Below, piece by piece: positions 3,663 through 29,553 of a DNA stretch of 40,660 bases (the stretch's first letter is position 1; the number at the start of each line of letters is the position of its first letter). The translations under genes and the position numbers were made by a program. The DNA comes from a virus. Location: the UHGV virus genome UHGV-0383422. One strand, written 5' to 3'. The notes beneath the pieces were generated by a model. It searched no databases, was not told the DNA's origin, and was given only the letters and a program-made list of their open reading frames with translations.

Positions 3663-3689
3663 CCCGCAAAATATTGCGGGCTTTTTTTT
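3663..3689 (+). terminator. intrinsic-terminator-like hairpin oriented for plus-strand transcription, at the tailspike 3' end
   Basis: Stem CCCGCAA/TTGCGGG followed by eight T on the plus strand; on the minus strand the hairpin is preceded, not followed, by the T/A run. Confidence 0.45.
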
Positions 3690-8047: not shown

Positions 8048-8408
8048 ATCTTGCTTTCAGGTGATCAAGCGTTAAACGCCACCAACCAAATACGGTTGAT
8101 TTTGATATTTCTCCGCGTTTATCATTACCTTTGCGGTAAATTTACATCGCACTCCTCTTGTGCCATAGTAATCGGGCACTGGCAAAATCCAGTGCCGGGA
8201 TTGGCGTCCCGGGTTACTAAGTGGCGCATACCACGCCAGACGTGGTTTTTTTATGCGTTAAGCACAGCTATATCCGAATTATGGTGGGCTGGGCAGGGGT
8301 CCGAAAGGACGCCGGTACCACTTAGGCCGGTACGCCAACCTTGTCCAGTTCACCACCAGTAATTGGCGTTGCGGTGGTGATTAAAATCACTAAGTGGAGA
8401 TAACCACC

Positions 8409-12768: not shown

Positions 12769-12773
12769 TTAAT

Positions 12774-14576: not shown

Positions 14577-17086
14577 TGCGGAATATCTCCGGAGAATCTC
14601 TGACGCTTCTGTGTCAGATTAAGAACAACGGGAGAACCATCATCTTTCAGCAGATAACCAGTACCAAGTTTCACCAGGTACTGACTATCGCCGTAACTTT
14701 GCAAACCATACTGACCAGGCGGTGTTTTTATCCCGGAGCCGACAACTTGTTCATTCCAAGCCTGATTAACCTGCTTATCGAATTGCTCTGCAGACATTCC
14801 CCACGGCAAAAGGACATTCCCCATTCCGTTATAGTCATGCACGCCACCTGTAGCTACGTTAACAGCCTGTTTCCAGACATCATTGTCAATTTCGCCTGAT
14901 ACCACGCCTTTTTTCGCCATCACACCAGCGTAATAATCCTTTGCGATCTCGTATGCCATTGATGCGCCCTGAGCGTCACCAGCAAATGCATCCTTCACCA
15001 TGTCAGAAAACTCAAGGCGAAGATCAGCATCTTTAGGCATCGGAATACCTTTCGCATCATCAGTACCTTTACGAGCCGCCGCGCCAGCAAGAATTGTCTG
15101 CGCAGCGGTTTCAGGAGACACGGAAACATCCGGATTAAACCAGTTTTTTTCTGCCAAAATACCACCAGGCTTATCCATCAGTATCCCGGCAACGGCAGCA
15201 GATGGAGCGTTGGCACTGATCTGCTGTAGTGCTGACATATACACCTGCCCACCACCAGTGCTCTGCCTGATGGTATCGAGATATGCTGCCTGTTGGGAAA
15301 CTGGAGCATCACGAAAGAAAACACCGATCTGATTGGCCTCGTCTTTGGAAAAGAACGTCAGTGGAGTGCCATATGACTTAGCAAGGTCACTGACCTGAGC
15401 GGCACGCAAGGCAACGCTCTGTCCAAAGTTATCCTTATTGCTCATGTCGATAGGCTTTGCCTGTCGGGAGGCAAGAGAGAACTGCACAGGATCCGACTGC
15501 CGCTGCTTTATCACCTGATTTGCAGCCGAAACAACGTTGTCATAAAGAGTTGCGCGTGCCGCATACCCCTCCCCTGTATCACCAGTATCCGGGCGTAATT
15601 GCTCAACATATGCTGTAATGCTGCTTGTCGGCATGTTGCGGAAAGAGCCTATATACTGTCCGGCGATCTGCGTATTCTTAAACTCGGTATATCGCAGGTT
15701 TCCTTCTCTGACTCCATAAGCTGCAATAAAATCATCCTCACCAGGTGGGTTAGGAAATTCAATGCCACGCATATACGCAGCCGTCGCATCGCGAACCCGG
15801 CTGTCGAGCATCGTTTTATATTCAGCCTGCTGTTGTCTGGCTAGTGCATCAGTCTGTCGCAACACGCTGGCCTGATCTGATTCACTTAAAGCATCGAACC
15901 AGGCTACACCGGTATAACGTTTATTTTTTGTCGGTAGCTGAGAAAGCCCCAGCGCAGCACTAACACCTGCAGTTAACTGCTGATCACTGTATGGCTGGCT
16001 ACCGTTTTCATGATGGATAATGGCTGCACAAAGCGCCTTCAGGGTATCAGGATTTGATGCATCGAGAGGCTCATCAGCAGAAACGCCAAGTTGTTCGCAC
16101 ACTGCTTTGATATACGACATAGTGTCATTTTTATCAGTAGGCGGTGCCCAGCGATTAATTATCTCGCTGACGGTATCAATACCCTGCCGCTGATACGACA
16201 TCAGGTTCCGCCCTAATGCACGAATACCGTGTTCAGGGGTTTCGAATTTGGCAAAGCGACCATCATCACCAGTCTGCCCAACCCACGGATTAGTTTTGCT
16301 GTATTCAAGATTGCCGGGGTTATTGTTGCGTATACCGCGGGTACGATCGGAAGAGCCACTATCTGCTACAGCACGGCGAGAACCAGCAGCAGTATCGCTT
16401 AACTCGCCGTTTTGCTGTCTTACCTGAAGATAGTTTGCTCCAATAGCATTTTGAGCAGTTGCTTTTGCTGTTGCTTCTTTAAACTCGATTTTCTTGGCCT
16501 GGATTTGCTCGTCACTCCAGCCATGTGCAATGCCGTAATCCTCAATTTGCTGGAAAGTTTGCTTATTAGCCAATACGTATGCGGCGTTGTCGCCATACAA
16601 TGCTGCGGCATTTTTACCATTGTTCAGCAGCGTAGCCTGAAACTGGCCTTCTTCGTAGGCATTTATTTGCCCTATCTCGTGCCGCCCGGCCTGCGTAGTG
16701 AACTGAATGCGCTGCTGCTGCGCCTGCTGCATGAAAGCATTACGAGCCTGTTCATCCGGCAGCGACATAGCCAGTTGTTCGACCTGAGCATCAAACTGCT
16801 GCGTATACTCCTGACCTTTTCCAATAGCATTTTTCCCTTTCAGGTTAAGCAAACCTGTTTCAGGGTTATTCAGCAGATCGCTGCTTATCTGGCTTAAGCT
16901 AAGAGAAGCATCCTGAGCCATAGCAACATTCGCACGCTGTTTTGCCTGCGCAATAATACCTGCATATTGCTCTGCAACATCGCCAAGTACATCACCGACA
17001 TTTGGTGTCTGAAACGATGAGAATCCCTGCGTCGAAATCCCTCTGCTCTGAACCTGACGGCCCGATGTTGTTGGTACAACTGGCAT
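14573..17086 (-). CDS. internal virion / DNA-ejection protein (large)
   Basis: 837 aa; Gln/Ala-rich coiled regions; position in structural operon; any cell-wall-hydrolase domain is unverified. Confidence 0.55.
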   Translation of the reverse strand: MPVVPTTSGRQVQSRGISTQGFSSFQTPNVGDVLGDVAEQYAGIIAQAKQRANVAMAQDASLSLSQISSDLLNNPETGLLNLKGKNAIGKGQEYTQQFDAQVEQLAMSLPDEQARNAFMQQAQQQRIQFTTQAGRHEIGQINAYEEGQFQATLLNNGKNAAALYGDNAAYVLANKQTFQQIEDYGIAHGWSDEQIQAKKIEFKEATAKATAQNAIGANYLQVRQQNGELSDTAAGSRRAVADSGSSDRTRGIRNNNPGNLEYSKTNPWVGQTGDDGRFAKFETPEHGIRALGRNLMSYQRQGIDTVSEIINRWAPPTDKNDTMSYIKAVCEQLGVSADEPLDASNPDTLKALCAAIIHHENGSQPYSDQQLTAGVSAALGLSQLPTKNKRYTGVAWFDALSESDQASVLRQTDALARQQQAEYKTMLDSRVRDATAAYMRGIEFPNPPGEDDFIAAYGVREGNLRYTEFKNTQIAGQYIGSFRNMPTSSITAYVEQLRPDTGDTGEGYAARATLYDNVVSAANQVIKQRQSDPVQFSLASRQAKPIDMSNKDNFGQSVALRAAQVSDLAKSYGTPLTFFSKDEANQIGVFFRDAPVSQQAAYLDTIRQSTGGGQVYMSALQQISANAPSAAVAGILMDKPGGILAEKNWFNPDVSVSPETAAQTILAGAAARKGTDDAKGIPMPKDADLRLEFSDMVKDAFAGDAQGASMAYEIAKDYYAGVMAKKGVVSGEIDNDVWKQAVNVATGGVHDYNGMGNVLLPWGMSAEQFDKQVNQAWNEQVVGSGIKTPPGQYGLQSYGDSQYLVKLGTGYLLKDDGSPVVLNLTQKRQRFSGDIPQ

Positions 17087-17098
17087 CTTATTATCCCC

Positions 17099-17638
17099 TT
17101 ATCGACCGGTTGGAGTGCCAACAGCAGCAGAAATCGGCGCAGCCTTCTGAGAGAACGGGCTCCACGTTCCGCCGCCCATCTGGTATGCACCGTATGCTTT
17201 TAGTGGTGCCGTTAACAAAGTGCTGGTCATCGATGATTTAGCAGCCGACTGAGCAGCAGCCCCCTGTGCCTGAGCATTCATTCCCTGAACCTGATACCCA
17301 TATGCCTCACGCTGAGCATTATTCACTGTCGTTAACGCATCAAGAGTGCCGAACTGAGCATTATCCGCAAAAACGTCAAGAGCTGTTCCGCTACTTAATT
17401 CCGCACCGGTAGCCCCCATAGTGGCCGCCGCAGTGCCTGAGCGTTGACGCATTTCACGACGACGCTGATCCGCTTCAATATTCCCACGATTGATTGAATC
17501 CTGTGCCTGAGCTTCAGCAATTTCAGCATTCCGATCAGCTATGGCTGACTGGTATTTTGCCTGCTTGCTCTGGCTGTACATTGACGCGGCTGTGGATGCC
17601 ACTGTGACGGCAACCAAAGCGATGGCTGGGTTACACAT
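17099..17638 (-). CDS. virion structural protein with N-terminal hydrophobic segment
   Basis: 179 aa; Ala/Gln-rich; structural operon. Confidence 0.5.
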   Translation of the reverse strand: MCNPAIALVAVTVASTAASMYSQSKQAKYQSAIADRNAEIAEAQAQDSINRGNIEADQRRREMRQRSGTAAATMGATGAELSSGTALDVFADNAQFGTLDALTTVNNAQREAYGYQVQGMNAQAQGAAAQSAAKSSMTSTLLTAPLKAYGAYQMGGGTWSPFSQKAAPISAAVGTPTGR

Positions 17639-18102
17639 TATTTTCTCTCCATGTGAAATCTGTGGAAATTAAGACCAAGAGCACCATAAGGCGCGGCTTC
17701 TTCAAGCCTGAATCCAAGCCAGTGCAGCCATGCTTTGGCAACATGGTTTCGCTCGTCGACGTAGTTTTCCAGGCGCGGATAAACTGCCAGCATCTGCTGC
17801 AATACAGGGCGGCAGTGGCGAAGAAATGTCTTCTGATATTTTTCAATACGGCTGGTTCCTACCAGCCAGGGCGTACCATTGCCACCGATCATTGACGCCG
17901 GAGATACGCCAAACATGGTTACCAGTTCTCCGTTCGCAAATCCTGACCAGGCCATAGTCGCAGTACGCAGACCAACACGCAGCGCATCTTCGGTAGTCAT
18001 CAGTGATACCGCATACAGTTCGTCAATATCAGCCTGACGAACATCCGGCAAAATCATCTGAAGATGCTCTTCGGTTGCGGGAATAATTTGAACATCGATC
18101 AT
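17638..18102 (-). CDS. hypothetical protein in structural module
   Basis: 154 aa; translationally coupled to neighbours. Confidence 0.5.
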   Translation of the reverse strand: MIDVQIIPATEEHLQMILPDVRQADIDELYAVSLMTTEDALRVGLRTATMAWSGFANGELVTMFGVSPASMIGGNGTPWLVGTSRIEKYQKTFLRHCRPVLQQMLAVYPRLENYVDERNHVAKAWLHWLGFRLEEAAPYGALGLNFHRFHMERK

Positions 18103-20573
18103 CAGAACCCACCAACAGTAAGGCGAGGAATAACGGCAAGAACAGACAGCGGCAACGGATCAAGCTGACGGATTTTTACACGTCCGTTTTTGCCCCAGTT
18201 ACTGTCCAGTTTCACTTCTACTTTTCCGGTAGCATCATCAACAGGATCATCGTAGAACTCGAATTCACGCTGTGGATATTCGTACCATTTACCGCCGGGC
18301 GTAGTCGCCCAGATGCCGCGACTGGCATTCACAACCAGAGTAACGGACGGGATCACCTGTTTTTTGTCCAGCAGCGTTTCCTGTCCGTTAATGTTGATAT
18401 CCAGTGTTTCGAATTCAGCAGTTATTGGCAGGCCGATGTGCACTACAGCCCCCGGTGATTCCAGCGTGACGGCACATCCGGAAACCACTTTCTGTGGTTC
18501 CACGTTCGCATCAGAGAGAATGTTTACGGTCTGGCCTTCAAGATGAGACAGGCCTCCAAATGTCCGGCGCGCCATCTGCCAGTTCGTGGTGGCCACATTC
18601 CTGAGGGATGGCGGGACGTTCCTGTTAGCACGAACCACTACAGCGGTATTGCTGGTTACAGAAATAATGTCGCAACGTAATTCTTTTGACACCTCATCGC
18701 CAGTATCAGGATCAGTTCCGGTATAAGGGAACTGTAGTTGCGCGCCGACATCACTACTGGTGAAGTACGCACCACCAGAAACACTGATTGTATATTCCGC
18801 GCGGTAATCCCATTCGCCAGAACCACCAGTGATGATCATCGTTCTGTCAGACGTATTTCTTCCATCATAGCTAAGGCCAGAATCAACAAAGAAAGCATCT
18901 TCATCGCTGGTAAATAAACGGCTGGACAGTCGCTCGATGTATCTCACTGTTTGCCCGTTAACGGTTCGGTTAACGACGAAATACACCGCATCTTCATTGC
19001 CTTCGCTGATACTGCATGTGCTTTCATATTTTCCGGTACTGGATTGTGGTGCCCATGCAAAAACCTGCTGATCACGCAAATAGGTCATCACCAGTAATTT
19101 ACCGTCATCACGGATGCAGAAGGCGCTGGAGTAAGGGACTATTGAGAAGCACCAGTCAACAATGCTGTGCTTCTGAAAAAGATGATTGGCAAGGATAGTA
19201 AGGTCGTTCCCCTGATAGCCGTCAACATCGAATGAGTAGGCCAGATCACGGACAACACTGCCTTTCTCCTGGACGAACAGAGCAATATTCGCCACGGCAA
19301 TTGGTGGGACATTGCTCGAGCCATTTGATCCCTGAGAGCTGAATGCAAATGATGATGGGGTAAGCACTTTGTTCTGGTCGCCAGTGATGACGTACTCACC
19401 TCCGGAAGTCAGCGCCACCAGCGAACCAACATCAATCAGGTGACGGATCTCATTAACCTGACGCCCGGCATAGGTGTAGATAATTCTGTCGTCATCCTGC
19501 GTAGGATTGCTTTTGCCAAAATCCTTATAATCCCCAGTACGGCTGGCCCAGATAGTCTGAGGGAACGCAGTCGATGCGGCGAAGTAAAGACGCTGTTGAT
19601 AATAAACAACAGTGCCAGGATAACCATTAACACTGTTCCAGGCATATTTAGCCCATTTATAGCTGGCATTATCCTCGCCAACGACCTGCGAAGGGATATA
19701 GGAAATCACCTCGGCAGTTGCAGTAGTGCCATTTGCAGCAGTGATACGGGCAATGCCAAAACCACTGTGCAGATACTCCCACTCAATGCCAGTATCATCA
19801 TCACCGGATCCGCCCCAGCCATCCCATGATGTGCCTTCTGTATGCGAAGGGCGCAAAGTACCTGTTTTGCCTGCTGTAACGGCGCGATAGTAGTTACTGT
19901 CTGCACGGCGAATATCGCCAATCGACGTACTCTTACTGGTTTCCCATACAGGTACTGAATCCACTGCAGGCTGTTCCAGATAGAACAATTTGCCTACCTG
20001 CTCCGCGCCAAAAATAGAGACGCTTGCCGTTAACGTAATTGTCCCGGTGCTGGCGCTGGCATAAACCGTCACTGACTCATCAATATTGATATCTTCAAAT
20101 GGCCCGTTCTTCGTTACCACATCAACCAGTTGCCAGTTGTCATGCGCATAGCGACGCAACTCTTTCGGCGGGTATGCCGGATGAACAAGCGTAAGCACGT
20201 CTGCGCTTTGCGTGAATTTAATTCGGAACAGATCGGCTTCAGTATATGGCGTGGCAATTTCATAAATAACATTGCTGCTGTTCAGCACCAACGCACCATC
20301 TTTGATAACGCGCATGTACTGGTGTCCGAACTCCAGAGCATAGGTCTGAACCGTCGAGAACTGGAACGGGATCAGGCGGCATTTCCGATTTGGGTATTTG
20401 GCGGCACCGACAAAACGCGTACCAGGTCGATTCTCAACGCCGCCATACTGCCGCACGATAAAGTTATCGCACTTGCGCAATGCCACCTGGTACTTCGCCA
20501 TGTCGATACGTCCGTACAACGACGGTCCAATCTCACCACCAGCAAAGCTGGGCTGGATCCAACTGATAGCCAT
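18102..20573 (-). CDS. large tail/nozzle structural protein
   Basis: 823 aa; position between adaptor-like and internal virion genes. Confidence 0.55.
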   Translation of the reverse strand: MAISWIQPSFAGGEIGPSLYGRIDMAKYQVALRKCDNFIVRQYGGVENRPGTRFVGAAKYPNRKCRLIPFQFSTVQTYALEFGHQYMRVIKDGALVLNSSNVIYEIATPYTEADLFRIKFTQSADVLTLVHPAYPPKELRRYAHDNWQLVDVVTKNGPFEDINIDESVTVYASASTGTITLTASVSIFGAEQVGKLFYLEQPAVDSVPVWETSKSTSIGDIRRADSNYYRAVTAGKTGTLRPSHTEGTSWDGWGGSGDDDTGIEWEYLHSGFGIARITAANGTTATAEVISYIPSQVVGEDNASYKWAKYAWNSVNGYPGTVVYYQQRLYFAASTAFPQTIWASRTGDYKDFGKSNPTQDDDRIIYTYAGRQVNEIRHLIDVGSLVALTSGGEYVITGDQNKVLTPSSFAFSSQGSNGSSNVPPIAVANIALFVQEKGSVVRDLAYSFDVDGYQGNDLTILANHLFQKHSIVDWCFSIVPYSSAFCIRDDGKLLVMTYLRDQQVFAWAPQSSTGKYESTCSISEGNEDAVYFVVNRTVNGQTVRYIERLSSRLFTSDEDAFFVDSGLSYDGRNTSDRTMIITGGSGEWDYRAEYTISVSGGAYFTSSDVGAQLQFPYTGTDPDTGDEVSKELRCDIISVTSNTAVVVRANRNVPPSLRNVATTNWQMARRTFGGLSHLEGQTVNILSDANVEPQKVVSGCAVTLESPGAVVHIGLPITAEFETLDININGQETLLDKKQVIPSVTLVVNASRGIWATTPGGKWYEYPQREFEFYDDPVDDATGKVEVKLDSNWGKNGRVKIRQLDPLPLSVLAVIPRLTVGGF

Positions 20574-21181
20574 CAGGACAACCTCGCAATGGTAAACTCG
20601 TCAACCGGTGGCTGTGGTTCCTGTGATTCATTCTGGCTATGCGAGCCAGCACTAAGAATCACGCGATTGTACATATTGAGAGCAAATGTACCGAGATCCG
20701 CATTCCCAGTCAGCGCCATGTTAATGGCTGCCGCAAGACGCCAGGCCAGCGCCTCCATAAAAATGGCATCAAACATGTTTACATCTGAAACGCGAGAGAC
20801 ATACTTGAGCCATGCCTGAGGCTGGTCTGTGTAGATCAACTTTCCTGTTCCGTTGGTGTCTGCACCAACTTCGTACTGAACGCGCATTGCTGCTGTTGGA
20901 TTGCGTACACCAGGAAGCATAATTTCAGTAATGCGCAGACAATCTGACGGGTACTGGTACGCATATTCCCAGTCAGGCGGTGGATTGCTCGTATCTGCAA
21001 GCGCCACGCGTTTGGTAGCAAAGTTCCAGTCAAAATCAGAAAGCACAGCATCACGGCAGGCCTCAAAGTGCAGCGAACATTCCCCCGCTTCCTTGCTGGC
21101 TTCCGTCAGGCTGTTAATGCTGCGGCTGTTGCCAATATTGGACAGCGCACGATTACAGATCTCTACTACAGAGGCCATCAC
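20573..21181 (-). CDS. head-tail adaptor-like structural protein
   Basis: 202 aa; position; coupled overlaps. Confidence 0.5.
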   Translation of the reverse strand: MMASVVEICNRALSNIGNSRSINSLTEASKEAGECSLHFEACRDAVLSDFDWNFATKRVALADTSNPPPDWEYAYQYPSDCLRITEIMLPGVRNPTAAMRVQYEVGADTNGTGKLIYTDQPQAWLKYVSRVSDVNMFDAIFMEALAWRLAAAINMALTGNADLGTFALNMYNRVILSAGSHSQNESQEPQPPVDEFTIARLS

Positions 21182-21507
21182 TCACCTCCGTTACCGTACA
21201 GAGTTTCAGCCGCTGATTTTTCTACATCCCCGGAAACAGGAGCGATCGCCATATCAGTGATCTGCAGATCGGCGCTGCGATTAACACCATCGTCAGTTTC
21301 TTTGGCAGACAGGCCTCGAATAACAGCCTTTGCAGTTATCATCACTTCTGTTCCGACGCCCTGAGGTTGCGCCTTCAGCTTATTCAATGTGTCGTTATTA
21401 AGAGTGATGCACAGCCCCCACGGGTATTCATCGCGAGTTCTGGTTTCTCCGCTCTCATCCTGGTAGCTGTCAGTGCCGGTTTTGAGGTTTACGAGTTCCA
21501 TATACAC
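21178..21507 (-). CDS. hypothetical virion protein
   Basis: 109 aa; preceded by a UUCG-loop hairpin and AGGAG Shine-Dalgarno. Confidence 0.5.
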   Translation of the reverse strand: MYMELVNLKTGTDSYQDESGETRTRDEYPWGLCITLNNDTLNKLKAQPQGVGTEVMITAKAVIRGLSAKETDDGVNRSADLQITDMAIAPVSGDVEKSAAETLYGNGGE

Positions 21508-21518
21508 TCCTGCAATAA

Positions 21519-21534
21519 AGGGGCCGAAGCCCCT
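21519..21534 (-). other. RNA stem-loop (AGGGGC-UUCG-GCCCCU) between structural genes
   Basis: Six-bp GC stem with UUCG tetraloop on the minus-strand transcript, directly before a ribosome-binding site. Confidence 0.4.
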
Positions 21535-21551
21535 TGTCTGATCCGCGAGGC

Positions 21552-21896
21552 TTACACGCCCAGTTCTTTACGCTTATCTGCGATCTTCTCGCGGAGCGTT
21601 TCGGCTTTGGCGTTATGGTGTGGCTTCTCGTTAAAGAGCAATTCGTACTCTTCACGGAGCTTATCCAGTTCACCATCATCTGACACGTCGTTGATGATTT
21701 TGGTGCTGGTTGCTGCCATTGACACCTTTCCTGCAACTTTTGCTTTTGCCTGTCTGGCTGCATCGTTAACAGGTTCCAGTGCGCTACCAGGCTCACCTTC
21801 GTATTCGATTTCTGCCCCCTCCGGCCACAGAGTGTTATGGATATGAGAGAGGCGCAGAACGCGGTATCTTGGTTTCTCACCTGACATCGATATCAC
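21552..21896 (-). CDS. hypothetical virion protein
   Basis: 114 aa; preferred over overlapping 21470-21880 ORF by coupling to neighbours and composition. Confidence 0.45.
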   Translation of the reverse strand: MISMSGEKPRYRVLRLSHIHNTLWPEGAEIEYEGEPGSALEPVNDAARQAKAKVAGKVSMAATSTKIINDVSDDGELDKLREEYELLFNEKPHHNAKAETLREKIADKRKELGV

Positions 21897-21897
21897 C

Positions 21898-22335
21898 TTA
21901 ACCAGTTACTTTTGAGCGGATCGGATACGGCGTATTGGCATCAACATCAAGACTGATACCAGCAGTGAATTCGCCAGCCGTTAGTGGGCCAGTTGCGACG
22001 GAGTAGTTAACACGCAGATATCGCTGAACACCGGCAGGCACCTTTGCAGAAACAACTCGTTTACCTGCTGTCAGGGCGGTCTTTGCCAGTGCGCCACTAT
22101 CATAAATAGTGGTCCATGAGCTGTTATTCTCACTCGTCTGCAACTGGATGTTTACAGTTGCATCACCGCTTGCTGCGGCGGCTGTGTTAACCAGCGCCCA
22201 AAACTCAAGCGGGTAACCCACGCCGATATCACGACGTTTTCCGTCAATTGGACCGAGATCGATTACGTCAGTAGAAGCCGCGGTATTCGTAACCGCCTGA
22301 GCTTCGGAGAACATCAACAGTTTGTCGGTGATCAT
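21898..22335 (-). CDS. hypothetical virion protein (possible capsid decoration)
   Basis: 145 aa; immediately after major capsid gene. Confidence 0.45.
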   Translation of the reverse strand: MITDKLLMFSEAQAVTNTAASTDVIDLGPIDGKRRDIGVGYPLEFWALVNTAAAASGDATVNIQLQTSENNSSWTTIYDSGALAKTALTAGKRVVSAKVPAGVQRYLRVNYSVATGPLTAGEFTAGISLDVDANTPYPIRSKVTG

Positions 22336-22350
22336 CTTCTTTCTCCATTA

Positions 22351-22370
22351 GTGGGTCTGTTACGACCCAC
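22351..22370 (-). other. stem-loop after major capsid gene (possible attenuator or stability element)
   Basis: Stem GTGGGTC/GACCCAC; no T-run; followed by GGAGAAAG Shine-Dalgarno of next gene. Confidence 0.4.
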
Positions 22371-22386
22371 AGGTTAATAACAGGCG

Positions 22387-23379
22387 TTACACCACGCGGG
22401 CTTCTGTTTCCAGAAGCGCATCAGTTTCACGGATTGGTACACCACGGAATGAAGTCCACCACTCGCCTTCTGTCTCTTTTACGCTGATAGCCAGAGATGT
22501 TTTCTCCAGAGACTGCAGATCAAGAGCCTGGCCTACAGTGCGGTTCATGTAGAACACCGGGCGGCCCATGCCACGGTTTGGAATGCGATGTAGTGCTTTA
22601 ACCATCAACTTCGCAATATTTGCGGCAGAGGATGGTTCTGAAAGATTGCTGACATCGATGTTTGCAATGCGAACAACATAACGCCAGTCACGCAGAGCAA
22701 GTCCGTTATCCCATTTGTAATGGGTGCGATAGCCTTCGTACTTGCCGCCATTAGCATCTTCCAGTGTCACCTGGCCTTTATCTTCCATCTGGATGCCAGC
22801 CTTCTGCCCTTTCGGGAAGATGCCATGCACGGTGTTTTCGCCCCACACCACTAACCAGATTGAGGTGTTATCTGTACCCGTGCCACCAGCATCAATGATG
22901 TTCTGAGCATTACCCGCAGACAGGCTGGAATAGCGGGAGGACAGTCCCATAAACTGCTGAGGGTTAACGCTGGAATCACCATAAAACAGCGTCTGCGCCA
23001 TCTGCTGATTCATCGCTTCAATAAATGCGCGGTCTTCAGACAGGCGGAATTCGGCGGTATTGCCGTTCAGATCAGCCAGTGACTTATCGACTTCCGCATA
23101 GGTTTCCAGCATGCCAACGGAATCGGTTACCTGCACTGTGGTTGATTTGCTTGGCTGTACGCCATAGTTCAGCAAACGCCAGGTAGCTGAAGGTAAACCA
23201 GAACGAATGGTGGTTCGGTGTCCGGTAGGAAGGTTCCCTTCGACAAAAGGCATATCCTGAAGGATCGGGTTAGTTTGACCGAGAAGCTCGATAATCTTAT
23301 CGACTTTCCCGTTTGGATCGACGCGCTTACCCCAGTCAGCCAGCGTTAGCGCAGTTAAGCCTTTAACAGCCATTGTCAT
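22387..23379 (-). CDS. major capsid protein
   Basis: 330 aa; directly after the scaffolding gene. Confidence 0.75.
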   Translation of the reverse strand: MTMAVKGLTALTLADWGKRVDPNGKVDKIIELLGQTNPILQDMPFVEGNLPTGHRTTIRSGLPSATWRLLNYGVQPSKSTTVQVTDSVGMLETYAEVDKSLADLNGNTAEFRLSEDRAFIEAMNQQMAQTLFYGDSSVNPQQFMGLSSRYSSLSAGNAQNIIDAGGTGTDNTSIWLVVWGENTVHGIFPKGQKAGIQMEDKGQVTLEDANGGKYEGYRTHYKWDNGLALRDWRYVVRIANIDVSNLSEPSSAANIAKLMVKALHRIPNRGMGRPVFYMNRTVGQALDLQSLEKTSLAISVKETEGEWWTSFRGVPIRETDALLETEARVV

Positions 23380-23387
23380 TTCCTCTC

Positions 23388-24089
23388 TTATTTGCCATAG
23401 AGCACTTCGGCCGCACTACGCTGGCCTTCATTACCACCGGTGACCATGCCATCTTCAGACATCGCCTTTCCGATTTTCACGAACGTTTTGACCAGATCAG
23501 GGTGATTACCCAGCCCGGTGGTGTTCAGATATTCTTTGAGTTCAGGTGTCCCGAACTGGTCAAGCGCACGCTGTGCGGCGCTAAGGTTAGAAATCAACTT
23601 GTCGCCACCGATTTCTTTGTCGGCTTTTACATCCGCAGCCCACTGCTCGGTTGTTTTCTGCCAGGCTTCTGCCTGGCGCTGCTGAACACCTGCCAGAATC
23701 TTCGGATAAGCATCAACCAGCTTTTGCGCTTGCTCGTTGGTCAGGTTTAGTTCTCGCGCCACCGGCTCGAATTCCTTCAACGCTTCTGTATCCAGCTCTA
23801 CGCCTTCGGCAGCCTGAAACTCGTACTTTTCAGGCGCACCCTCTGGTTTATCGCCGTCCTTTTTTTCATCCTGCTTATCGTTTTCAGGCTTTTTGTCATC
23901 AGCAGGTTTATCGCCATCAGCAACAGGTTGTGGCTTATCACCTTCCTGTTGTGATGGATCACCAACTGGAGCAGGGTTATCACCTGCAGGCGCTGACGGT
24001 TCTGACGCAGCCGGAGCTGCTCCACCATCGACTGGTTGCTCATTGCAAAGACGGCGATACAGCAAACGCTCAAATAAATTCATGATCAC
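23388..24089 (-). CDS. head scaffolding protein
   Basis: 233 aa; Pro/Asp/Lys-rich acidic low-complexity N-terminal half; between portal and capsid. Confidence 0.7.
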   Translation of the reverse strand: MIMNLFERLLYRRLCNEQPVDGGAAPAASEPSAPAGDNPAPVGDPSQQEGDKPQPVADGDKPADDKKPENDKQDEKKDGDKPEGAPEKYEFQAAEGVELDTEALKEFEPVARELNLTNEQAQKLVDAYPKILAGVQQRQAEAWQKTTEQWAADVKADKEIGGDKLISNLSAAQRALDQFGTPELKEYLNTTGLGNHPDLVKTFVKIGKAMSEDGMVTGGNEGQRSAAEVLYGK

Positions 24090-24382
24090 TCCTGTTCACT
24101 GGCCTCTTTGGCCATCTTCAAATACTGTTCAGGGCAATGCGCCATAACGCGCTGAAACAGTTCCAGCGCCAGATTGCGTTGCCCCTCATTAAATGCCATT
24201 GCCATAGCATCCATCGGAGAGATAGCGGAAAACACCCGGCCTTTCTCCAGCACCGACCAGACAACGCGACGCCCCTGTTCACTGCTCATGACAAAGCGAA
24301 TGTCATCAATTTCACGCTGTGCCATGTCACGTTGCTTACGGGCGTTTTCTTCTTTCAGTTGATCGTCTTCGAAATCTGTCAT
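24086..24382 (-). CDS. hypothetical head-morphogenesis protein
   Basis: 98 aa; coupled between portal and scaffold. Confidence 0.5.
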   Translation of the reverse strand: MTDFEDDQLKEENARKQRDMAQREIDDIRFVMSSEQGRRVVWSVLEKGRVFSAISPMDAMAMAFNEGQRNLALELFQRVMAHCPEQYLKMAKEASEQE

Positions 24383-26058
24383 TGTGATTGCCCACCCTGA
24401 CCACTAACTGCATTCGCCATAGCTGACAAAACACTCGGATCCGAAGTTTTAGCTTCGCTTAGCGTCTTGGCACCCTGTGCCGCCGCCATCCCCATCGCCA
24501 TCATTTGTTGCTGCTGTTGTTGCTGTGCCCGTTGCTGGCGAGCCTGCTCAACCTGTTCCTGCGGAACAATGACGGTTGGAGACACTCCGGACATATCAGC
24601 GAATGCATCGATCGCCTGATCAACGTTGAGTTTGTCGAGAGCTTCTGGTTTCGCTTGCGCAAGTTGACCAATGAAGTTAACCGTGGACGCCAGACTGGAC
24701 AGGCCGATAGACTTCTGCGCCTGAGCCATGACGGAAATGTATTCGACCTTCAGGGGCATGCCTTCCATCGCGTCAGGCGGTGTCGGCAGCATGTTTTTAC
24801 GCACCATCATCGAGAAAGCGCGGTCAATGAGAGGATTAAGACATTCGTCGTTCAGACGCTCCAGAACCGGCCCCAACATCAGAAGTTTTTCTTCTTTCAT
24901 TTCGATCACCGCTTCAACAGGCATCGAGCGGGTATTGATGTTCTGCAACATCATGAACAGATCGACAAAGTAGGCGCTGTTAATGATTTGACGGGTGTCC
25001 TGAATGTCTGCCACCAAATCTGCTGTACTGGGGTTAACCAGATAAGCAGGCCTGAAACCATCCTGACCAGTAATCTGATCGATATACGTGATGTCGCCAG
25101 GAAGAAGGGAGGCACGCTGATTCTTGAGGGAAGTCGGAGCAACCATCGGCGGATTGGTGGCTTTATCAATCAACTGCGACTTGCGCTTCTGGAGAAGCTG
25201 CAATGCCTTAACAGGTCCAAGCGCCAGCATACCCGGGCATGATGATCCATAAACATCTTCGCCGTTAACTTCCCAGCGCGGAGCCATAATTGGAAACTCA
25301 TCGAATCCGGACTCACGCAACAACTTGTCGTTATCGCCACCAACCTCGTAATAAACCGATTTGAATGGCTTGTTCTTGCTATCCAGCTTCGATGTATCGC
25401 GGTCAATGTTCGGGTAAACCGAATGCATCACTTCAATCCACTTCTCGTAGGTGCCGCTTTCCCACATGCTTTTTACGGATTCGCTGACGTTATTTAGCCC
25501 GAACTCCTGAACAAGCTGACGAACAGTCATAGAGAACTTGCGAAAACAGGTGTCCACACTGCCACGAGGTGAGTTAGCCAGGTAGTAACTGCCTATCGGG
25601 AATGGCATTGTGCGAATGATGTCCTCGTCATCCTCCAGCACCGCCATTGCACCAGTGCTGTATGTGCCGAGGCTTCCGTATAACTGCGGAAGAGACTGGT
25701 AGAGATTCGACTTATTGAACATATCGTTCATGCGGTTCTGAACTGCCTCAAGCCACAACTTAACAGGGCCATAGTCCATCATTTCAGGATCTGGCGTAGC
25801 CAGGCGAAACCACGGACGGGCGGGGCTTGTTATGCCTGACATCATGCCGCTGGCAAGAGTGCGCGCCGCCATAGTCCCGGTCGAATCAATAATGCGTGTA
25901 TTGCGTCGATCGTTACGGTTAACCTCAGAAGTCAGAAAGCGGGAACCACGCGGGTTGATGTAATCACTCAACTCGCGCCAGTGCGGCTCGAACGACTGAC
26001 GCTCGCTTTCAAGTTGTGCGAACTGTTTGTTCAATCGCTCTTTAGTTGTTTCCGCCAT
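24379..26058 (-). CDS. portal protein
   Basis: 559 aa; poly-Gln/Ala C-terminal tail; position next to terminase and scaffold. Confidence 0.8.
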   Translation of the reverse strand: MAETTKERLNKQFAQLESERQSFEPHWRELSDYINPRGSRFLTSEVNRNDRRNTRIIDSTGTMAARTLASGMMSGITSPARPWFRLATPDPEMMDYGPVKLWLEAVQNRMNDMFNKSNLYQSLPQLYGSLGTYSTGAMAVLEDDEDIIRTMPFPIGSYYLANSPRGSVDTCFRKFSMTVRQLVQEFGLNNVSESVKSMWESGTYEKWIEVMHSVYPNIDRDTSKLDSKNKPFKSVYYEVGGDNDKLLRESGFDEFPIMAPRWEVNGEDVYGSSCPGMLALGPVKALQLLQKRKSQLIDKATNPPMVAPTSLKNQRASLLPGDITYIDQITGQDGFRPAYLVNPSTADLVADIQDTRQIINSAYFVDLFMMLQNINTRSMPVEAVIEMKEEKLLMLGPVLERLNDECLNPLIDRAFSMMVRKNMLPTPPDAMEGMPLKVEYISVMAQAQKSIGLSSLASTVNFIGQLAQAKPEALDKLNVDQAIDAFADMSGVSPTVIVPQEQVEQARQQRAQQQQQQQMMAMGMAAAQGAKTLSEAKTSDPSVLSAMANAVSGQGGQSQ

Positions 26059-26072
26059 TTCAATGACTCCGG

Positions 26073-26279
26073 TTACTGACCAAGCAGCGTTTTACCGCTG
26101 GTATTAGCGGTTGATGTGTCGCCCTGAGAACCGGTAAGCAGCGTAGAACTACGACCAGCAGCAGCGCGACGGCGACGAGTTTCTTCGTCGCGGGCATCAA
26201 CAACGGCGGCATCCTGCTCCTGTGGTGCTGCCTGAACTTCTGGTGTTGCAGGCACTGATGGTGAGCTACCCATGCACAT
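26073..26279 (-). CDS. hypothetical small protein upstream of portal
   Basis: 68 aa, low complexity; shares the GGAGTCATTGA ribosome-binding segment with the portal gene. Confidence 0.4.
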   Translation of the reverse strand: MCMGSSPSVPATPEVQAAPQEQDAAVVDARDEETRRRRAAAGRSSTLLTGSQGDTSTANTSGKTLLGQ

Positions 26280-26367
26280 ATCAATGACTCCGTACGCAAT
26301 TAAATTATTACCAATTTAACCATATATGATTTATTTATCGTAGGTAGTTGACATTTAACGCACAAAT

Positions 26368-26384
26368 TATTACCTTTCAGGTAA
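26368..26384. promoter_or_regulatory. operator-like palindrome ATTACCT-TTC-AGGTAAC
   Basis: Dispersed motif family member, in the terminase-portal accessory island. Confidence 0.45.
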
Positions 26385-26706
26385 CCAAAGAGTTCATTCC
26401 GGTTACTAACCTGACTGGCTTGTCGTTAAATTGAACAGGTGGAGTGAGCTTTTATTTTGAGCAGTACGGCGTATGGCACATGCGCCGATAGCGGTCTGGA
26501 TACGTTTAAGGGGCACCCTCCCTTGCTCGGGCAAACGAACCAGGTAGCCGGAATGTGCAAGTCGAGCGGTTTTATTCCGCGCACGGGGATTCACCATCCC
26601 GGCGATTCGGTGTGACGCCTCGGAAGAGACGAGGGTACAACGATGAGAGCATTTATGGAGCCGCGACAAAGTGTGGCGCCTTAACAGGCTAAGTGCTCTC
26701 AGCGTT

Positions 26707-26783
26707 GTGGCATTAGCTCAGTTGGACAGAGCAACCGCCTTCTAAGCGGTTGGTCGCAGGTTCGAATCCTGCATGCCACGCCA
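26707..26783 (+). tRNA. tRNA-Arg (anticodon UCU)
   Basis: Folded by hand: acceptor GTGGCAT/ATGCCAC, D-arm GCTC/GAGC, anticodon stem ACCGC/GCGGT with loop CTTCTAA (anticodon TCT), T-arm GCAGG-TTCGAAT-CCTGC, discriminator G and CCA. Confidence 0.9.
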
Positions 26784-26826
26784 GAATCACGCCTAAGGAC
26801 CGTGATGCCAGAAGTTCCAGGTGCTT

Positions 26827-26868
26827 GGCGGTGATGGTTTCCCTTGAAGGACTATCACCGCCCTTTTT
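26827..26868 (+). terminator. hairpin terminator downstream of tRNA
   Basis: Stem GGCGGTGAT/ATCACCGCC followed by CTTTTT. Confidence 0.55.
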
Positions 26869-26946
26869 ACAGCAGGACGCCATTGCGATGACTTCATGCT
26901 GTAAACCAGTACAGCCACGGAAGGCATAACTCATTGCTTCCAGTTC

Positions 26947-26971
26947 GCCCGGTTCGTCCGGGCATTTTTTT
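26947..26971 (+). terminator. rho-independent terminator
   Basis: Stem GCCCGG/CCGGGC with TTCGT loop followed by ATTTTTTT; next ATG only 13 nt downstream. Confidence 0.65.
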
Positions 26972-26983
26972 AAGGTGAAAATC

Positions 26984-27316
26984 ATGAAAGAGAAGACTGC
27001 AGCTGAGCGCTATGCCGCAGCTATCAATGCCGCGATGGCGATTGTAAACCTGCGTGAAGAGATTAAAGATCTCCTTGCAATTATCCATAACAACCTGACA
27101 TGTACAGAGTTGCTTGGCGGTCAGTACAACGGTGAGGCGGTGAAGGAGGCATTTAAAAATGCCGAGGTAGGAATAATTCCAGCAAACTATGTCAAGGCTG
27201 AATGTGTGCTCCTAAAGGCACGAGTGAGTCTGCATGAAGATCCTGGTAATCTCGGTCGAACTGCAATGCGTTACGTGATAGACGAGTCGAATGCCAAACA
27301 CAATCTACCGAAATAA
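26984..27316 (+). CDS. hypothetical protein (110 aa), accessory gene
   Basis: ATG at 26984 with AAGGTGA Shine-Dalgarno; convergent with large terminase; palindrome copy just after the stop. Confidence 0.55.
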   Translation: MKEKTAAERYAAAINAAMAIVNLREEIKDLLAIIHNNLTCTELLGGQYNGEAVKEAFKNAEVGIIPANYVKAECVLLKARVSLHEDPGNLGRTAMRYVIDESNAKHNLPK

Positions 27317-27320
27317 CACC

Positions 27321-27332
27321 GTGACATGTCAC
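27321..27332. repeat. 12-bp perfect palindrome GTGACATGTCAC (copy 2 of 3)
   Basis: Exact palindrome four nt after the stop of 26984-27316. Confidence 0.6.
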
Positions 27333-27406
27333 AAACAGACAGCCTATGAGCTGGCTTTGTTTTATCCTCACCAGAGGATATCAACGACATTATCCCCACC
27401 AGCGGA

Positions 27407-28882
27407 TTAAGCATAGGGATCGTAATCTGTGATGGCCTTGCCTTGCTGGTTCTGCTGACCGGGAATTCGCAGACGCTTCGACACAGGGAACGCAAACGTC
27501 AGCAGTAGCGCATCGCCTTTACCAGGAGAACGCCCAAGTCGCTCTTTGATATCTTCCTTCGGTTCGATAACGATTTTACCGTCCACTCGAACTTTGTACT
27601 CTGCTGCCGACAGGTCGTCCGCTGTTTCCTGGTCATCCAGCATGCCGCCCAGCCTCAGCCATGTCTTGCATGAATTGAACATCTCCCCACGCTTGTTGAG
27701 CATCTGCGGGTCAGTAGACGCGCCACCGAACGGAACAAGTTGCCATGTACGACCCCATCCGTCACCGATTGACTTCAGACCGGTTCCGTAACCGAAGTCG
27801 ATGAACACCGCGTCAGCCTGATACTGGTCTTCAAAGTCAGCGATACGCTTCGCCATAATCAGATCGTCGGTAGTCTTGTTGCCAGTCCACAGCACCTTAC
27901 TGTGTAGCCCCTGCCGCAGGTATATCACCGCGTCATCAACGCCTGAATATGCCGGGTCAACACCGATTATCACCGGAGCATGCGCCACCTGCGCAGCGGT
28001 TACCACCCGTTTCATTGCCTCATCAGTAAGACCGGTAGGGATAAACTGCAATTCAGATGCATCAGGGAATATGCCGCGCACACGGATTTTAACGAAGTCG
28101 CTGTCTTCCCCGTAGTCATCAACCCATTTCTGCAACTGCTGTTTGTTAGTGCCTTCCACCGTTCGGCTGTCAATCTGCGCAGTTTTCCAGCGGTGTTTAT
28201 ATTTGCGGAAACATTCGCGGAAACGTCCGGTATTACGCGTCGGGTTTCCGAACGCCACCCAGATAATCTCAGTGTCTTCGTCCGTTAGTGCACCCTCGGC
28301 AACTTCCCACACCAGATCCGCAATGTTCGACGCTTCATCGAATACCACGATGATGCGTTTGCGCTCGTTGTGTAGTCCGGCGAATGCCTCAGTGTTGTGC
28401 TCAGACCAGGGGATTGCGTCAGCTCGCCACCGCTTGTCGTGTCCAGGATCATTGCTGTACATCGCGGTAGCGGTACAGGTAAACCAGTCTTTCGTGATAG
28501 CAAGGTTCGACCACTTGATAATTTCCGGCCAGGTCTTCGTTCGTAGCTGGTTGTCGGTGTTGGCGGTCACCACGACCTTACAATCCTCGCAAGTGGACAT
28601 GCCCCAGTTGATCAGCATTGAGATGAATGCGGATTTACCAATACCGTGACCCGAAGCACGTGCCAGCATAAGCGGCTGATAGCGCGTCTCTGGATTCTGC
28701 AGGTGATCACGTATCTCTCGGAACGCATCAGCCTGCCACTGACGTGGGCCGGTAGCATGTGCCAGTTCAGTCCCCTCTTCCCCCCACGGGAACGCATAGA
28801 GGGCATAGCCAAGCGGATCGTGAGTGAACCCTGCAATATCCTCGATCAACTGCTCTTCAGGAGATAACGCTGTATCTGTCAC
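27407..28882 (-). CDS. terminase large subunit
   Basis: 491 aa; Walker A-like ASGHGIGKS; acidic nuclease-region motifs; coupled to small subunit. Confidence 0.85.
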   Translation of the reverse strand: MTDTALSPEEQLIEDIAGFTHDPLGYALYAFPWGEEGTELAHATGPRQWQADAFREIRDHLQNPETRYQPLMLARASGHGIGKSAFISMLINWGMSTCEDCKVVVTANTDNQLRTKTWPEIIKWSNLAITKDWFTCTATAMYSNDPGHDKRWRADAIPWSEHNTEAFAGLHNERKRIIVVFDEASNIADLVWEVAEGALTDEDTEIIWVAFGNPTRNTGRFRECFRKYKHRWKTAQIDSRTVEGTNKQQLQKWVDDYGEDSDFVKIRVRGIFPDASELQFIPTGLTDEAMKRVVTAAQVAHAPVIIGVDPAYSGVDDAVIYLRQGLHSKVLWTGNKTTDDLIMAKRIADFEDQYQADAVFIDFGYGTGLKSIGDGWGRTWQLVPFGGASTDPQMLNKRGEMFNSCKTWLRLGGMLDDQETADDLSAAEYKVRVDGKIVIEPKEDIKERLGRSPGKGDALLLTFAFPVSKRLRIPGQQNQQGKAITDYDPYA

Positions 28883-29553
28883 TGATTACCATCCTGACGT
28901 TCTTTGAGTCGCTTCCTGGCTGCTGCTATGCGATCAGCAATTGTCACATTCACATTAACATCCAGACGTTCTTTGAACGCGTTGACATCAACATGCTTAC
29001 CAATCAGCTCAAGGTTCTTCACCTTGTCAGGCCATTTAATTTTTTTGAGGATTGTCTCTATCGAATCCTCGTTCATGTTCATGATGGTCGATGACAGATC
29101 AAAGCCACTAAGCGTAGTGCGCCAGATTTTCGGCCACTCACGGATTGGTTTAAGGCTCCCATCGTCGTTGAGGATGTCGATCACGTCCATCTGGTCGATC
29201 TCCACCAGGCGCATGAGAACGTAATCAGCACTGACGCGCATTCGTTTGTTGCGCTCCTCCATCAACTCGGCAATCCGTTTTTGAATGCGTTCATCGCGCA
29301 TCATGACACTGGCTTTAACTGCCGCTGTATTTGGGGAGAATCCTGCGTTAATCGCTGCCTGAGTCTGGTTTTCAGGCGTTTTGATGTATGACTGGCAATA
29401 AGCCTCCTGCATTGCTGTTAGTGGCTTAAATTGCGTTGATTTGCGTTTATAGGTTTTAGGTTCAGCAGGCATCATAACCACCGTGGTAATAGTTACCGTT
29501 GTGGTAATAGTACCATGCAAAATAAAGCCGCCATAGTTGGCGGCAGTATTCAA
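28879..29553 (-). CDS. terminase small subunit
   Basis: 224 aa; N-terminal HTH-like region (AMQEAYCQSYIKTPENQTQAAINAGFSPNTAAVKA); likelier start may be the internal MM at 29475, as the listed N-terminus is encoded by a direct-repeat region. Confidence 0.8.
   Translation of the reverse strand: MNTAANYGGFILHGTITTTVTITTVVMMPAEPKTYKRKSTQFKPLTAMQEAYCQSYIKTPENQTQAAINAGFSPNTAAVKASVMMRDERIQKRIAELMEERNKRMRVSADYVLMRLVEIDQMDVIDILNDDGSLKPIREWPKIWRTTLSGFDLSSTIMNMNEDSIETILKKIKWPDKVKNLELIGKHVDVNAFKERLDVNVNVTIADRIAAARKRLKERQDGNQ

Follow-up and report, generated by a model that had tools for sequence, protein, structure and literature searches.

A conserved, pseudoknotted RNA of temperate phages, found in a putatively repressor-controlled island between terminase and portal genes

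The virus genome UHGV-0383422, a DNA of 40,660 nucleotides (nt) that we refer to in its entirety as the window, is that of a phiV10/epsilon15-like temperate podophage; the region considered here is approximately 98% identical to Uetakevirus phages (phiV10, TL-2011b, ZX5, and the O157 typing phages 9 and 10) and is shared to the same degree with many prophages of E. coli. A 1.13-kb plus-strand unit separates TerL from a 68-aa gene that adjoins the portal gene. It holds a candidate promoter overlapped by a repressor operator, a tRNA-Arg(UCU), a pair of strong intrinsic terminators, a gene for a 110-aa protein, and a weak third terminator (Table 1). The same unit contains a 173-nt element, called here the scaffold RNA, that is the main subject of this report. 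The original prediction for this DNA described an accessory island separating terminase from portal, and the features it listed are found at or near the places it gave. Within its limits, 26060–27406, the left 220 bp (26073–26279) are the conserved minus-strand 68-aa late gene, so that the opposite-strand island proper is 26280–27406, and the 68-aa gene, though within the predicted coordinates, is part of the minus-strand late operon. Nor is the island a peculiarity of the window genome. It occurs also in phiV10, TL-2011b, SPN1S, Tyrion, and hundreds of E. coli prophages, the block from promoter to ribosome-binding site being common to these relatives and only the open reading frame (ORF) behind it being swapped; outside that ORF cassette the window copy is approximately 98% identical to phiV10, TL-2011b, and ZX5. 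Some Uetakevirus records annotate the tRNA-Arg, and epsilon15 has annotated repressor, IHF, and RNase III sites; none of these records annotates the scaffold RNA, and several place spurious ORFs over it. The island itself is already present in published genomes, where it is partly annotated, and its tRNA and terminators are ordinary.

Table 1. Features of the island, its flanking genes, and the operator-like palindromes (positions in the window)
Feature	Position	Strand	Evidence and remarks
Portal gene	24379–26058	minus	Pfam Head-tail_con, E 6e-187
68-aa late gene, epsilon15 gp3 homologue	26073–26279	minus	ORF list; phrog_831, E 2.4e-36; annotated PhiV10p06 / epsilon15p03
Candidate sigma-70 promoter	26348–26376	plus	TTGACA, 17-nt spacer, TACCTT (weak -10); inferred, read from sequence
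Putative repressor operator palindrome TTACCTTTCAGGTAA	26370–26384		Overlaps -10 hexamer and predicted start; sequence comparison
Leader, degenerate copy of long hairpin module	26385–26463	plus	Alignment with epsilon15, L022, BUCT709, L043
Conserved scaffold RNA, 173 nt	26464–26636	plus	Covariance model R1, 133.9 bits
Helix P1, hairpin	26467–26487
Possible contact, P1 loop GCAC with GUGC in 19-mer	26476–26479 with 26555–26558
Helix P2	26495–26499 with 26540–26544		Closes variable hairpin
Invariant 19-mer GGUAGCCGGAAUGUGCAAG	26543–26561
P4 hairpin	26586–26600		Loop UUCACCA
Pseudoknot, P4 loop CACC with GGUG	26592–26595 with 26609–26612
P5 hairpin	26618–26634		Loop GAAGAGA
Hairpin module	26637–26706	plus	Conserved closing stem ACAACGAUGAGAGCA / UGCUCUCAGCGUUGU, hypervariable interior
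tRNA-Arg, anticodon UCU	26707–26783	plus	CCA encoded; ARAGORN; Rfam RF00005, 73.3 bits
Terminator T1	hairpin 26827–26862, then CUUUUU to 26868	plus	Closes tRNA trailer; 14-bp stem; terminator scan; -22.8 kcal/mol, z -5.0
RyhB-like element	26916–26971	plus	Box AUUGCUUCCAGU = RyhB consensus core; ends in T2
Terminator T2	stem 26947–26963, U7 26965–26971	plus	Terminator scan; -13.1 kcal/mol, z -4.3
110-aa protein gene	26984–27316	plus	phrog_27507, full-length (residues 1–110 of 110), E 3.5e-75; function unassigned in families
Weak terminator-like hairpin after ORF, then UUUGUUUU	27333–27362	plus	-8.4 kcal/mol, z -0.9
TerL	27407–28882	minus
TerS	28879–29553	minus
TTACC-N5-GGTAA sites	1309, 6912, 8032, 8125, 9192, 26370, 29475, 29493, 33598, 33660, 35893, 35941, 36653, 36715

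A distant BLAST match links the non-coding block of the island with two unrelated phages, Escherichia phage PhiR63_1 and Stenotrophomonas phage BUCT709, neither of which has a tRNA at this place; in both the match lies just downstream of a cI-type repressor gene, on the same strand. Aligned with the window, these sequences consist of long invariant blocks alternating with stems that bear compensatory changes. The fold that we propose, derived from 38 diverse sequences, has four helices and a pseudoknot, together with a 19-nt stretch that is modelled as unpaired and is invariant from Escherichia to Stenotrophomonas phages; across the family the element measures about 147–179 nt. The sole significant match of covariance model R1 in the window is the scaffold itself. 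A weak match at 38222–38355 on the minus strand (9.3 bits, E 0.05) is probably noise.

Compensatory changes support all four predicted helices as well as the pseudoknot. In a MAFFT alignment 95.7% of the cells are paired, as against 26–50% when the partners are slid; 12 pairs have changed on both sides, and none of 500 shuffles reaches the observed value. The model-aligned set of 77 distinct sequences gives much the same result (96.5% paired versus 26–46%, 13 pairs changed on both sides, 0/500 shuffles), and because this second alignment leans towards the covariance model, we take the first as the independent check. The pseudoknot covaries in the 77-sequence set, CACC:GGUG becoming AACC:GGUU in 16 sequences, and several positions hold fixed G-U pairs when read as the plus strand, so that the fold is specific to that strand. 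In the contact that may join the P1 loop to the 19-mer, both sides are invariant.

The original prediction had pointed to a GC-rich segment at about 26400–26700 where the only ORFs seemed implausible, and comparison bears this out. Of the frames that can be anchored on the 19-mer, even the best stays open in only 15 of 42 homologues; element lengths modulo 3 divide 21/13/9, and the local ORFs over the scaffold have no Pfam match; with no frame conserved and indels that are not multiples of three, we conclude that the scaffold is non-coding and reject a protein gene, the outcome that the prediction had itself set against its view of this segment. Its three guesses at what the segment might be fare unequally. 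A degraded second tRNA is rejected, as is a tmRNA, for ARAGORN yields one tRNA only and Rfam has no match; the suggestion of a tRNA leader is taken up below; and the guess of a small RNA comes nearest, what lies there being an independent and widespread structured RNA family. We also reject membership in a known RNA family: the plus strand of 26464–26636 matches nothing in Rfam 15, whether the gathering threshold is applied or, with permissive filters, a cut-off of E ≤ 10, and homologues in eight other loci have no Rfam match. These comparisons establish 26464–26636, on the predicted fold, as a strand-specific, pseudoknotted, non-coding structured RNA family.

It is most improbable that the conserved unit works instead as DNA or single-stranded DNA (as a signal for replication or the primosome, or as a site of recombination) or encodes a small protein. 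Such an interpretation could appeal to the scaffold of phage P1, which lies beside the ban helicase gene, to minus-strand ORFs annotated over the scaffold in GenBank, and to a locus, L023, in which two copies flank an inserted gene and suggest recombination. The lack of a conserved frame speaks against it, as do the fixed G-U pairs and the constant co-orientation of the scaffold with promoters and tRNAs. The two L023 copies (minus strand, 4805–4960 and 3998–4155) are approximately 650 nt apart with an opposite-strand gene between them, the second carrying substitutions at otherwise invariant positions, and this arrangement may mean that the scaffold has been a recombination point for inserted genes. 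Every other locus is single-copy. ORFs labelled "hypothetical protein" are annotated over the non-coding block in five GenBank records (L001 3154–3405, L130 2943–3311, L005 2823–3113, L006 2906–3067, and L004 2943–3152; L numbers denote the loci we fetched for comparison). Annotated ORFs span the scaffold in mEp460, BUCT709, Tyrion, and PhiR63_1, and in phiV10 they lie over the tRNA and T1 instead. They are probably spurious gene calls, which the presence of the scaffold would account for.

The family is widely distributed. Its 19-mer (GGTAGCCGGAATGTGCAAG as DNA) occurs in at least 120 IMG/VR contigs, and an independent anchor pattern, built on the 5′ hairpin, recovers 23 loci from species-representative genomes, of which 22 are real elements, nearly all from Enterobacterales; 21 of the 22 have the exact 19-mer. 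The remaining locus, in Acidovorax, was discarded as a chance pattern inside a coding region with no covariance-model match. We likewise discount the label "Bacillota MAG" (metagenome-assembled genome) on one match, a 1.7-kb contig with HK022-like operators that is probably enterobacterial phage sequence. Covariance-model searches covered the fetched loci, and R1 finds a copy in all but one of these 149, the exception being the Acidovorax match. The scaffold is present in 88 phage records, including P1, P7, D6, SJ46, mEp460, cdtI, and Stx2c/Stx2a phages, and BLAST places it in 1824 of 5426 complete E. coli genomes (34%), at 2449 places of which 547 are on plasmids. No annotated feature lies beneath the match in any of 40 sampled RefSeq E. 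coli rows. The scaffold has thus spread through the temperate phages of Enterobacterales, and Stenotrophomonas phages carry it too. Open-access papers dealing with put, with the ban operon of P1, with phiV10/epsilon15, or with N-independent antitermination gave no description of it, and a search of open-access text for the sequence itself gave nothing; an older account may exist in a subscription journal.

In the lambdoid phages that carry it (mEp460, cdtI, the PhiR series, 2H10, Stx2c phages, and Stx2a_1447/WGPS2), the scaffold comes after cI in the same orientation, with the cI terminator and paired operator-like repeats in between; this is the start of the early-left (PL) operon. The order of cI, operator-like repeats, and scaffold on one strand recurs in mEp460, PhiR63_1, Stx2a_1447, and BUCT709, and the same-strand ORFs upstream of the scaffold are frequently cI-type repressors of several families. 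In L043, L150, and L035 the promoter/operator region is nearly identical to the OL/PL of phage HK022 over approximately 55 nt; the homology stops near the transcription start, and the scaffold, in place of the HK022 element putL, begins about 20 nt past the predicted start. This HK022-type PL is called by promoter scan, and mEp460 has a similar arrangement behind its early promoter. More generally, strict sigma-70-like sites occur within 170 nt upstream of the scaffold in 35 of 119 contexts, as compared with 5 and 6 of 119 in two controls. We conclude that the scaffold is usually made from a repressor-controlled early promoter, at or near the 5′ end of the transcript.

The window appears to conform to this pattern. 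Its candidate promoter, which a strict promoter scan does not call, is conserved in epsilon15 and Tyrion by alignment, and the palindrome TTACCTTTCAGGTAA that overlaps it occupies the same position as a binding site annotated "repressor, lysogeny" in epsilon15. The underlying motif, TTACC-N5-GGTAA, occurs 14 times in the window where 0.68 copies are expected, a number reached by none of 100 shuffles; two of the copies are inside the TerS gene. This abundance points to a dispersed set of repressor operators like that of the P1 C1 protein.

In P1-like phage-plasmids (P1, P7, D6, SJ46, RCS47) the scaffold, unannotated, lies between trnI and ban, within the C1-controlled ban operon. A tRNA with anticodon CAU (in P1, trnI/tRNA-Ile) ends 15–17 nt upstream of the scaffold in 17 P1-like contexts, and a tRNA-Arg is found within 150 nt downstream in 28 contexts, mostly at about 70 nt and right after the hairpin module. 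Altogether, a tRNA lies within 1.5 kb in 46 of 146 unique contexts; these tRNAs number 57, every one of them on the scaffold strand. The other 100 contexts dispose of the idea that the segment is a mere tRNA leader.

Look-alikes of host small RNAs often follow the scaffold. In the window the box AUUGCUUCCAGU, which matches the RyhB core, is invariant among 27 distinct epsilon15-like sequences, and the T2 stem behind it covaries; the Rfam score is 22 bits (E 0.32) against a gathering score of 55, so that the element shares only the core and a terminator with RyhB and falls outside RF00057, as does a RyhB-type match in L081 (27.4 bits). The element may be a phage mimic of this host iron-stress small RNA. 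Directly after the scaffold of BUCT709 (L005, 3131–3250) lies an RprA-like RNA of 50.2 bits (gathering score 70, local E 1.5e-5) in which AAUUGCUGUGUGUAGUCUU is identical to the RprA consensus and which has a strong terminator at its end. DicF-like hairpins with U-runs stand between the scaffold and the first early-left gene at L058 761–813 (19.5 bits) and L081 802–854 (27.7 bits; gathering score 48). Hairpins of mEp460 (L130, 3384–3520; -21.2 and -45.5 kcal/mol, followed by U-runs) resemble DicF by eye, an Rfam scan of that locus giving no DicF match, and P1 has an annotated dicF-like region. The scaffold is co-transcribed with tRNAs and with small-RNA look-alikes, and the look-alikes suggest that these phages mimic the small RNAs of their hosts systematically.

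A transcript of this composition, in which tRNAs, RyhB-, RprA-, and DicF-like RNAs, and long hairpins are joined, might lead one to suppose that the scaffold is only a processing and stability platform, which would arrange folding and the access of nucleases, allowing the tRNA and small RNAs to mature, and would have no activity of its own. We consider this unlikely. More than two-thirds of the contexts are those without a tRNA within 1.5 kb, relatives of the BCE049 type retain the scaffold and have no tRNA, and such a platform would have no need of an invariant 19-nt stretch and a pseudoknot conserved across distant phages.

To our knowledge, processive antitermination by RNA alone comes from essentially one small family, HK022 put, and it is with put that the position of the scaffold invites comparison. 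The put RNA, of approximately 70 nt and two stem-loops, suppresses termination and pausing through the zinc-binding domain of the RNA polymerase beta-prime subunit (PMC9378689). Because the scaffold occupies the putL slot behind a homologous PL, because N is absent from the early-left operon, and because strong terminators precede the first protein gene in three unrelated backbones, we tentatively favour the view that it is a put-like leader RNA letting polymerase read through terminators. The island would then be a repressor-controlled, mostly untranslated RNA operon of the plus strand, inserted between the late genes TerL and gp3/portal, in the order promoter and operator, degenerate hairpin, scaffold, hypervariable hairpin, tRNA-Arg(UCU), trailer with T1, RyhB-like RNA with T2, and 110-aa gene. 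The scaffold would fold on the nascent transcript and act on the RNA polymerase that made it, and the modified polymerase, resistant to intrinsic and Rho-dependent termination, would pass the terminator-ended small RNAs and the tRNA to reach the genes beyond: the 110-aa ORF behind T1 and T2 in the window, and the whole early-left operon as far as xis and int in lambdoid phages. Read-through had been suggested in the original prediction, which fits this mechanism.

Several observations are as expected of such a leader. The scaffold comes right after a repressor-controlled early promoter in L043, L150, and L035. Strong terminators, with no promoter called between, separate it from the first protein gene in the window, in mEp460, and in BUCT709. 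From cI to the early-left genes of Stx2a_1447 and mEp460, where the operon runs to xis and int, we found no N-like ORF; with only a boxA-like stretch within a stem besides, a system of the lambda N/nut type is not indicated. A family-wide terminator count of our own (52/121) was left unused, the counter having missed terminators seen by scan or by folding.

A good deal weighs on the other side. Membership in the put family is rejected: when aligned locally with the HK022 immunity region the scaffold scores no higher than shuffles do, the R1 model finds nothing in HK022, searches of all loci for putL and putR give nothing above background, and the architecture of P1, P2, P4, P5, and pseudoknot differs from the two stem-loops of put. 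A resemblance to put in the P1 region (ACGGCG...CAUGCGUCG..AGCG), noticed by eye, did not survive these tests, and a second, putR-like copy on the PR side was found in none of the loci within the fetched flanks. P1 has no terminator between scaffold and ban, and none was seen ahead of the first gene of L043. In epsilon15 only the first 50 nt or so of the scaffold remain (L129, 2505–2588); the rest has been deleted along with the hairpin, the tRNA, and T1, yet T2 and the ORF are kept. In the window, polymerase reading through would run antisense into TerL after a single small gene. Partial read-through may in any event suffice, because dicB of the Qin prophage is expressed behind the 3′ hairpin of DicF with no copy of the scaffold, none being found when the K-12 Qin dicB region was searched with the covariance model. 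Lastly, the scaffold is bracketed by long hairpins, tRNAs, and in one case a hammerhead-like core, as would be expected of an RNA that is excised.

This last observation leads to a different possibility, less probable in our judgment though a serious one, namely that the scaffold leaves the early transcript as a separate, stable RNA and works in trans on a highly conserved host component (such as RNase E, RNase P, Hfq or ProQ, the ribosome, Rho, or a defence system). RNase III, cutting within the hairpins on either side, and RNase P or RNase E, cutting at the adjacent tRNAs, would release the RNA, which would serve host take-over or counter-defence in early lytic growth. The hairpins are indeed of one kind. 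Homologous to the module found behind the scaffold in BUCT709 and L043, the upstream leader coincides with the epsilon15 feature annotated "RNaseIII"; the module downstream (-31.6 kcal/mol, z -5.1) ends exactly at the 5′ end of the tRNA. Since leader and module are hairpins of the same sort, the scaffold is probably bracketed by processing sites in epsilon15-like phages. A long hairpin follows P5 in most family members, with at least 24 different interiors of 35–100 nt between conserved arms, and one such interior (L058, 384–430) contains a complete type I hammerhead catalytic core at near-threshold score (28.7 bits against a gathering score of 34; local E 7.5e-5). Direct abutment on tRNAs, upstream in P1-like elements and downstream where tRNA-Arg follows, is consistent with excision; so are the invariance of the unpaired 19-nt segment, the scarcity in the window and P1 of anything that would require antitermination, and the absence of any conserved protein partner encoded near the scaffold across contexts. 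Against action in trans, the frequent first place of the scaffold behind PL or another promoter would go unexplained. Cleavage, moreover, is compatible with a put-like role, because put RNA stays bound without a tether (PMC9378689).

A leader with a complex pseudoknotted fold, invariant junction nucleotides, and a 5′ position also brings to mind a riboswitch-like element that senses a ligand or signal and gates early transcription. We regard this as very unlikely. No expression platform is adjacent, P5 having no U-run behind it and the terminators lying 200–400 nt away behind other RNAs; the downstream genes (ban, DUF2303, ParB-like, Gp49, and others) are mutually unrelated; and in P1 the element is in mid-operon.

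Several known systems invite comparison with the scaffold. Like HK022 putL/putR, the scaffold is a structured RNA forming the first part of a repressor-controlled early transcript, and it sits in the exact putL slot behind an HK022-type OL/PL, with no N gene and with terminators downstream. It is more than twice as long, has four helices and a pseudoknot in place of two stem-loops, shows no sequence or covariance-model similarity to put, and occurs also midway along the P1 ban operon and in the late region of a podophage. The order of promoter, RNA signal, long hairpin, and downstream RNAs or genes recalls lambda nutL with the RNase III hairpin of the N leader, and the boxA leader of rrn operons, which are likewise largely untranslated; these leaders, however, have no counterpart of the scaffold, and there is no N protein or boxB here. 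The 3′ arm of the hairpin module (UGCUCUCAGCGUUG in the window, UGCUCUUUCCGUUG in other phages) resembles the rrn boxA consensus, UGCUCUUUAACAA, and is base-paired here. ROOL and GOLLD are also ornate phage RNAs of obscure function, and the scaffold shares with them adjacency to co-oriented tRNAs, in about a third of its contexts; it is much smaller, their Rfam models do not match it, and its hosts are Enterobacterales. The Qin dicB operon with DicF, and the "dicF-like region" of P1 ban, are similar in being early-left, repressor-controlled operons in which processed small RNAs with terminator-like hairpins at their ends stand ahead of protein genes, whereas DicF is a base-pairing RNA of 53 nt and the scaffold a pseudoknotted one. 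The Pas small RNAs of enteropathogenic E. coli prophages were considered and rejected as the scaffold; they are different elements, located in late regions.

The scaffold fails every test of membership in a known RNA family and resembles put only in position and presumed task. We would place it among the regulatory RNAs of phage early leaders, with a substantial chance that it lies further from what is known. It is possible, if somewhat short of probable, that it founds a new class of regulatory RNA, being either a second antitermination RNA, structurally unrelated to put, or an RNA that is cut out and takes hold of a conserved host machine, and heading RNA operons of tRNAs and small-RNA mimics. 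Should the put-like interpretation be correct, a second, larger, and far more widespread antiterminator RNA in the same slot would bear on how RNA alone reprograms polymerase, in P1 and Stx phages among others. Because it heads the operon leading to xis and int in some Stx-converting prophages, the scaffold may also bear on prophage induction. Its interest would outlast a failure of the proposed mechanism: a pseudoknotted RNA in which 19 nt are essentially invariant, and which 34% of complete E. coli genomes carry, is missing from Rfam and from the RefSeq annotation we sampled, a gap that merits closing.

The remaining parts of the island are more conventional. The plus-strand tRNA-Arg(UCU) of the original prediction is confirmed by ARAGORN (anticodon tct) and by Rfam, its score standing far above the RF00005 gathering score of 29, and it is annotated as tRNA-Arg in relatives. 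Supply of the rare AGA codon had been proposed as its purpose, and our codon count for the window supports this in part. Among the 43 ORFs AGA is used 7.25 times per 1000 codons (11.5% of Arg codons); it is frequent in tailspike, ejection, and early genes and absent from the head, portal, and terminase genes (20573–29553). It is plausible that the tRNA serves the decoding of AGA-rich genes outside the head and packaging region. Usage is sharply modular, with 16 AGA codons in a 1039-aa ORF (3688–6807) and 24 in four large ORFs (10294–20573).

T1 and T2, which had been described as tandem terminators, both consist of a GC-rich hairpin directly before a U-run, as predicted intrinsic terminators should; each probably marks the 3′ end of a small RNA of its own, T2 closing the RyhB-like element. 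The site in phiV10 equivalent to the weak hairpin after the ORF is annotated as a putative rho-independent terminator.

The ATG of the 110-aa gene does lie 13 nt after the U-run of T2, as predicted, with an AGGTGA ribosome-binding site in between. Its product belongs with 15 homologous clusters (61–98% identity), all unnamed; it has no match in Pfam, NCBIfam, PADLOC, or a PDB profile search, and its AlphaFold model has a predicted local distance difference test (pLDDT) score of 48.8, too low for the model to be of use. The junction at 26963–26990, UUUUUUUAAGGUGA followed by ATG, is conserved, and at least four unrelated ORF cassettes stand behind it among near-identical phages; phiV10 and epsilon15 have Sf6-gp66-like or Gp49 genes at this place, other genes are found elsewhere, and in some relatives another operator and promoter replace the junction. 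Judged by these comparisons, the gene is a genuine phage gene, carried as exchangeable cargo behind the AGGTGA site, which is conserved.

Elsewhere in the window, isrK (67.7 bits, 8176–8252) lies beside a C4 antisense RNA (66 bits, 8277–8360), as in the RNA immunity module of the P1/P7/P4 type, and the same pair is found near the scaffold-bearing PL region of mEp460 (L130, 706–894).

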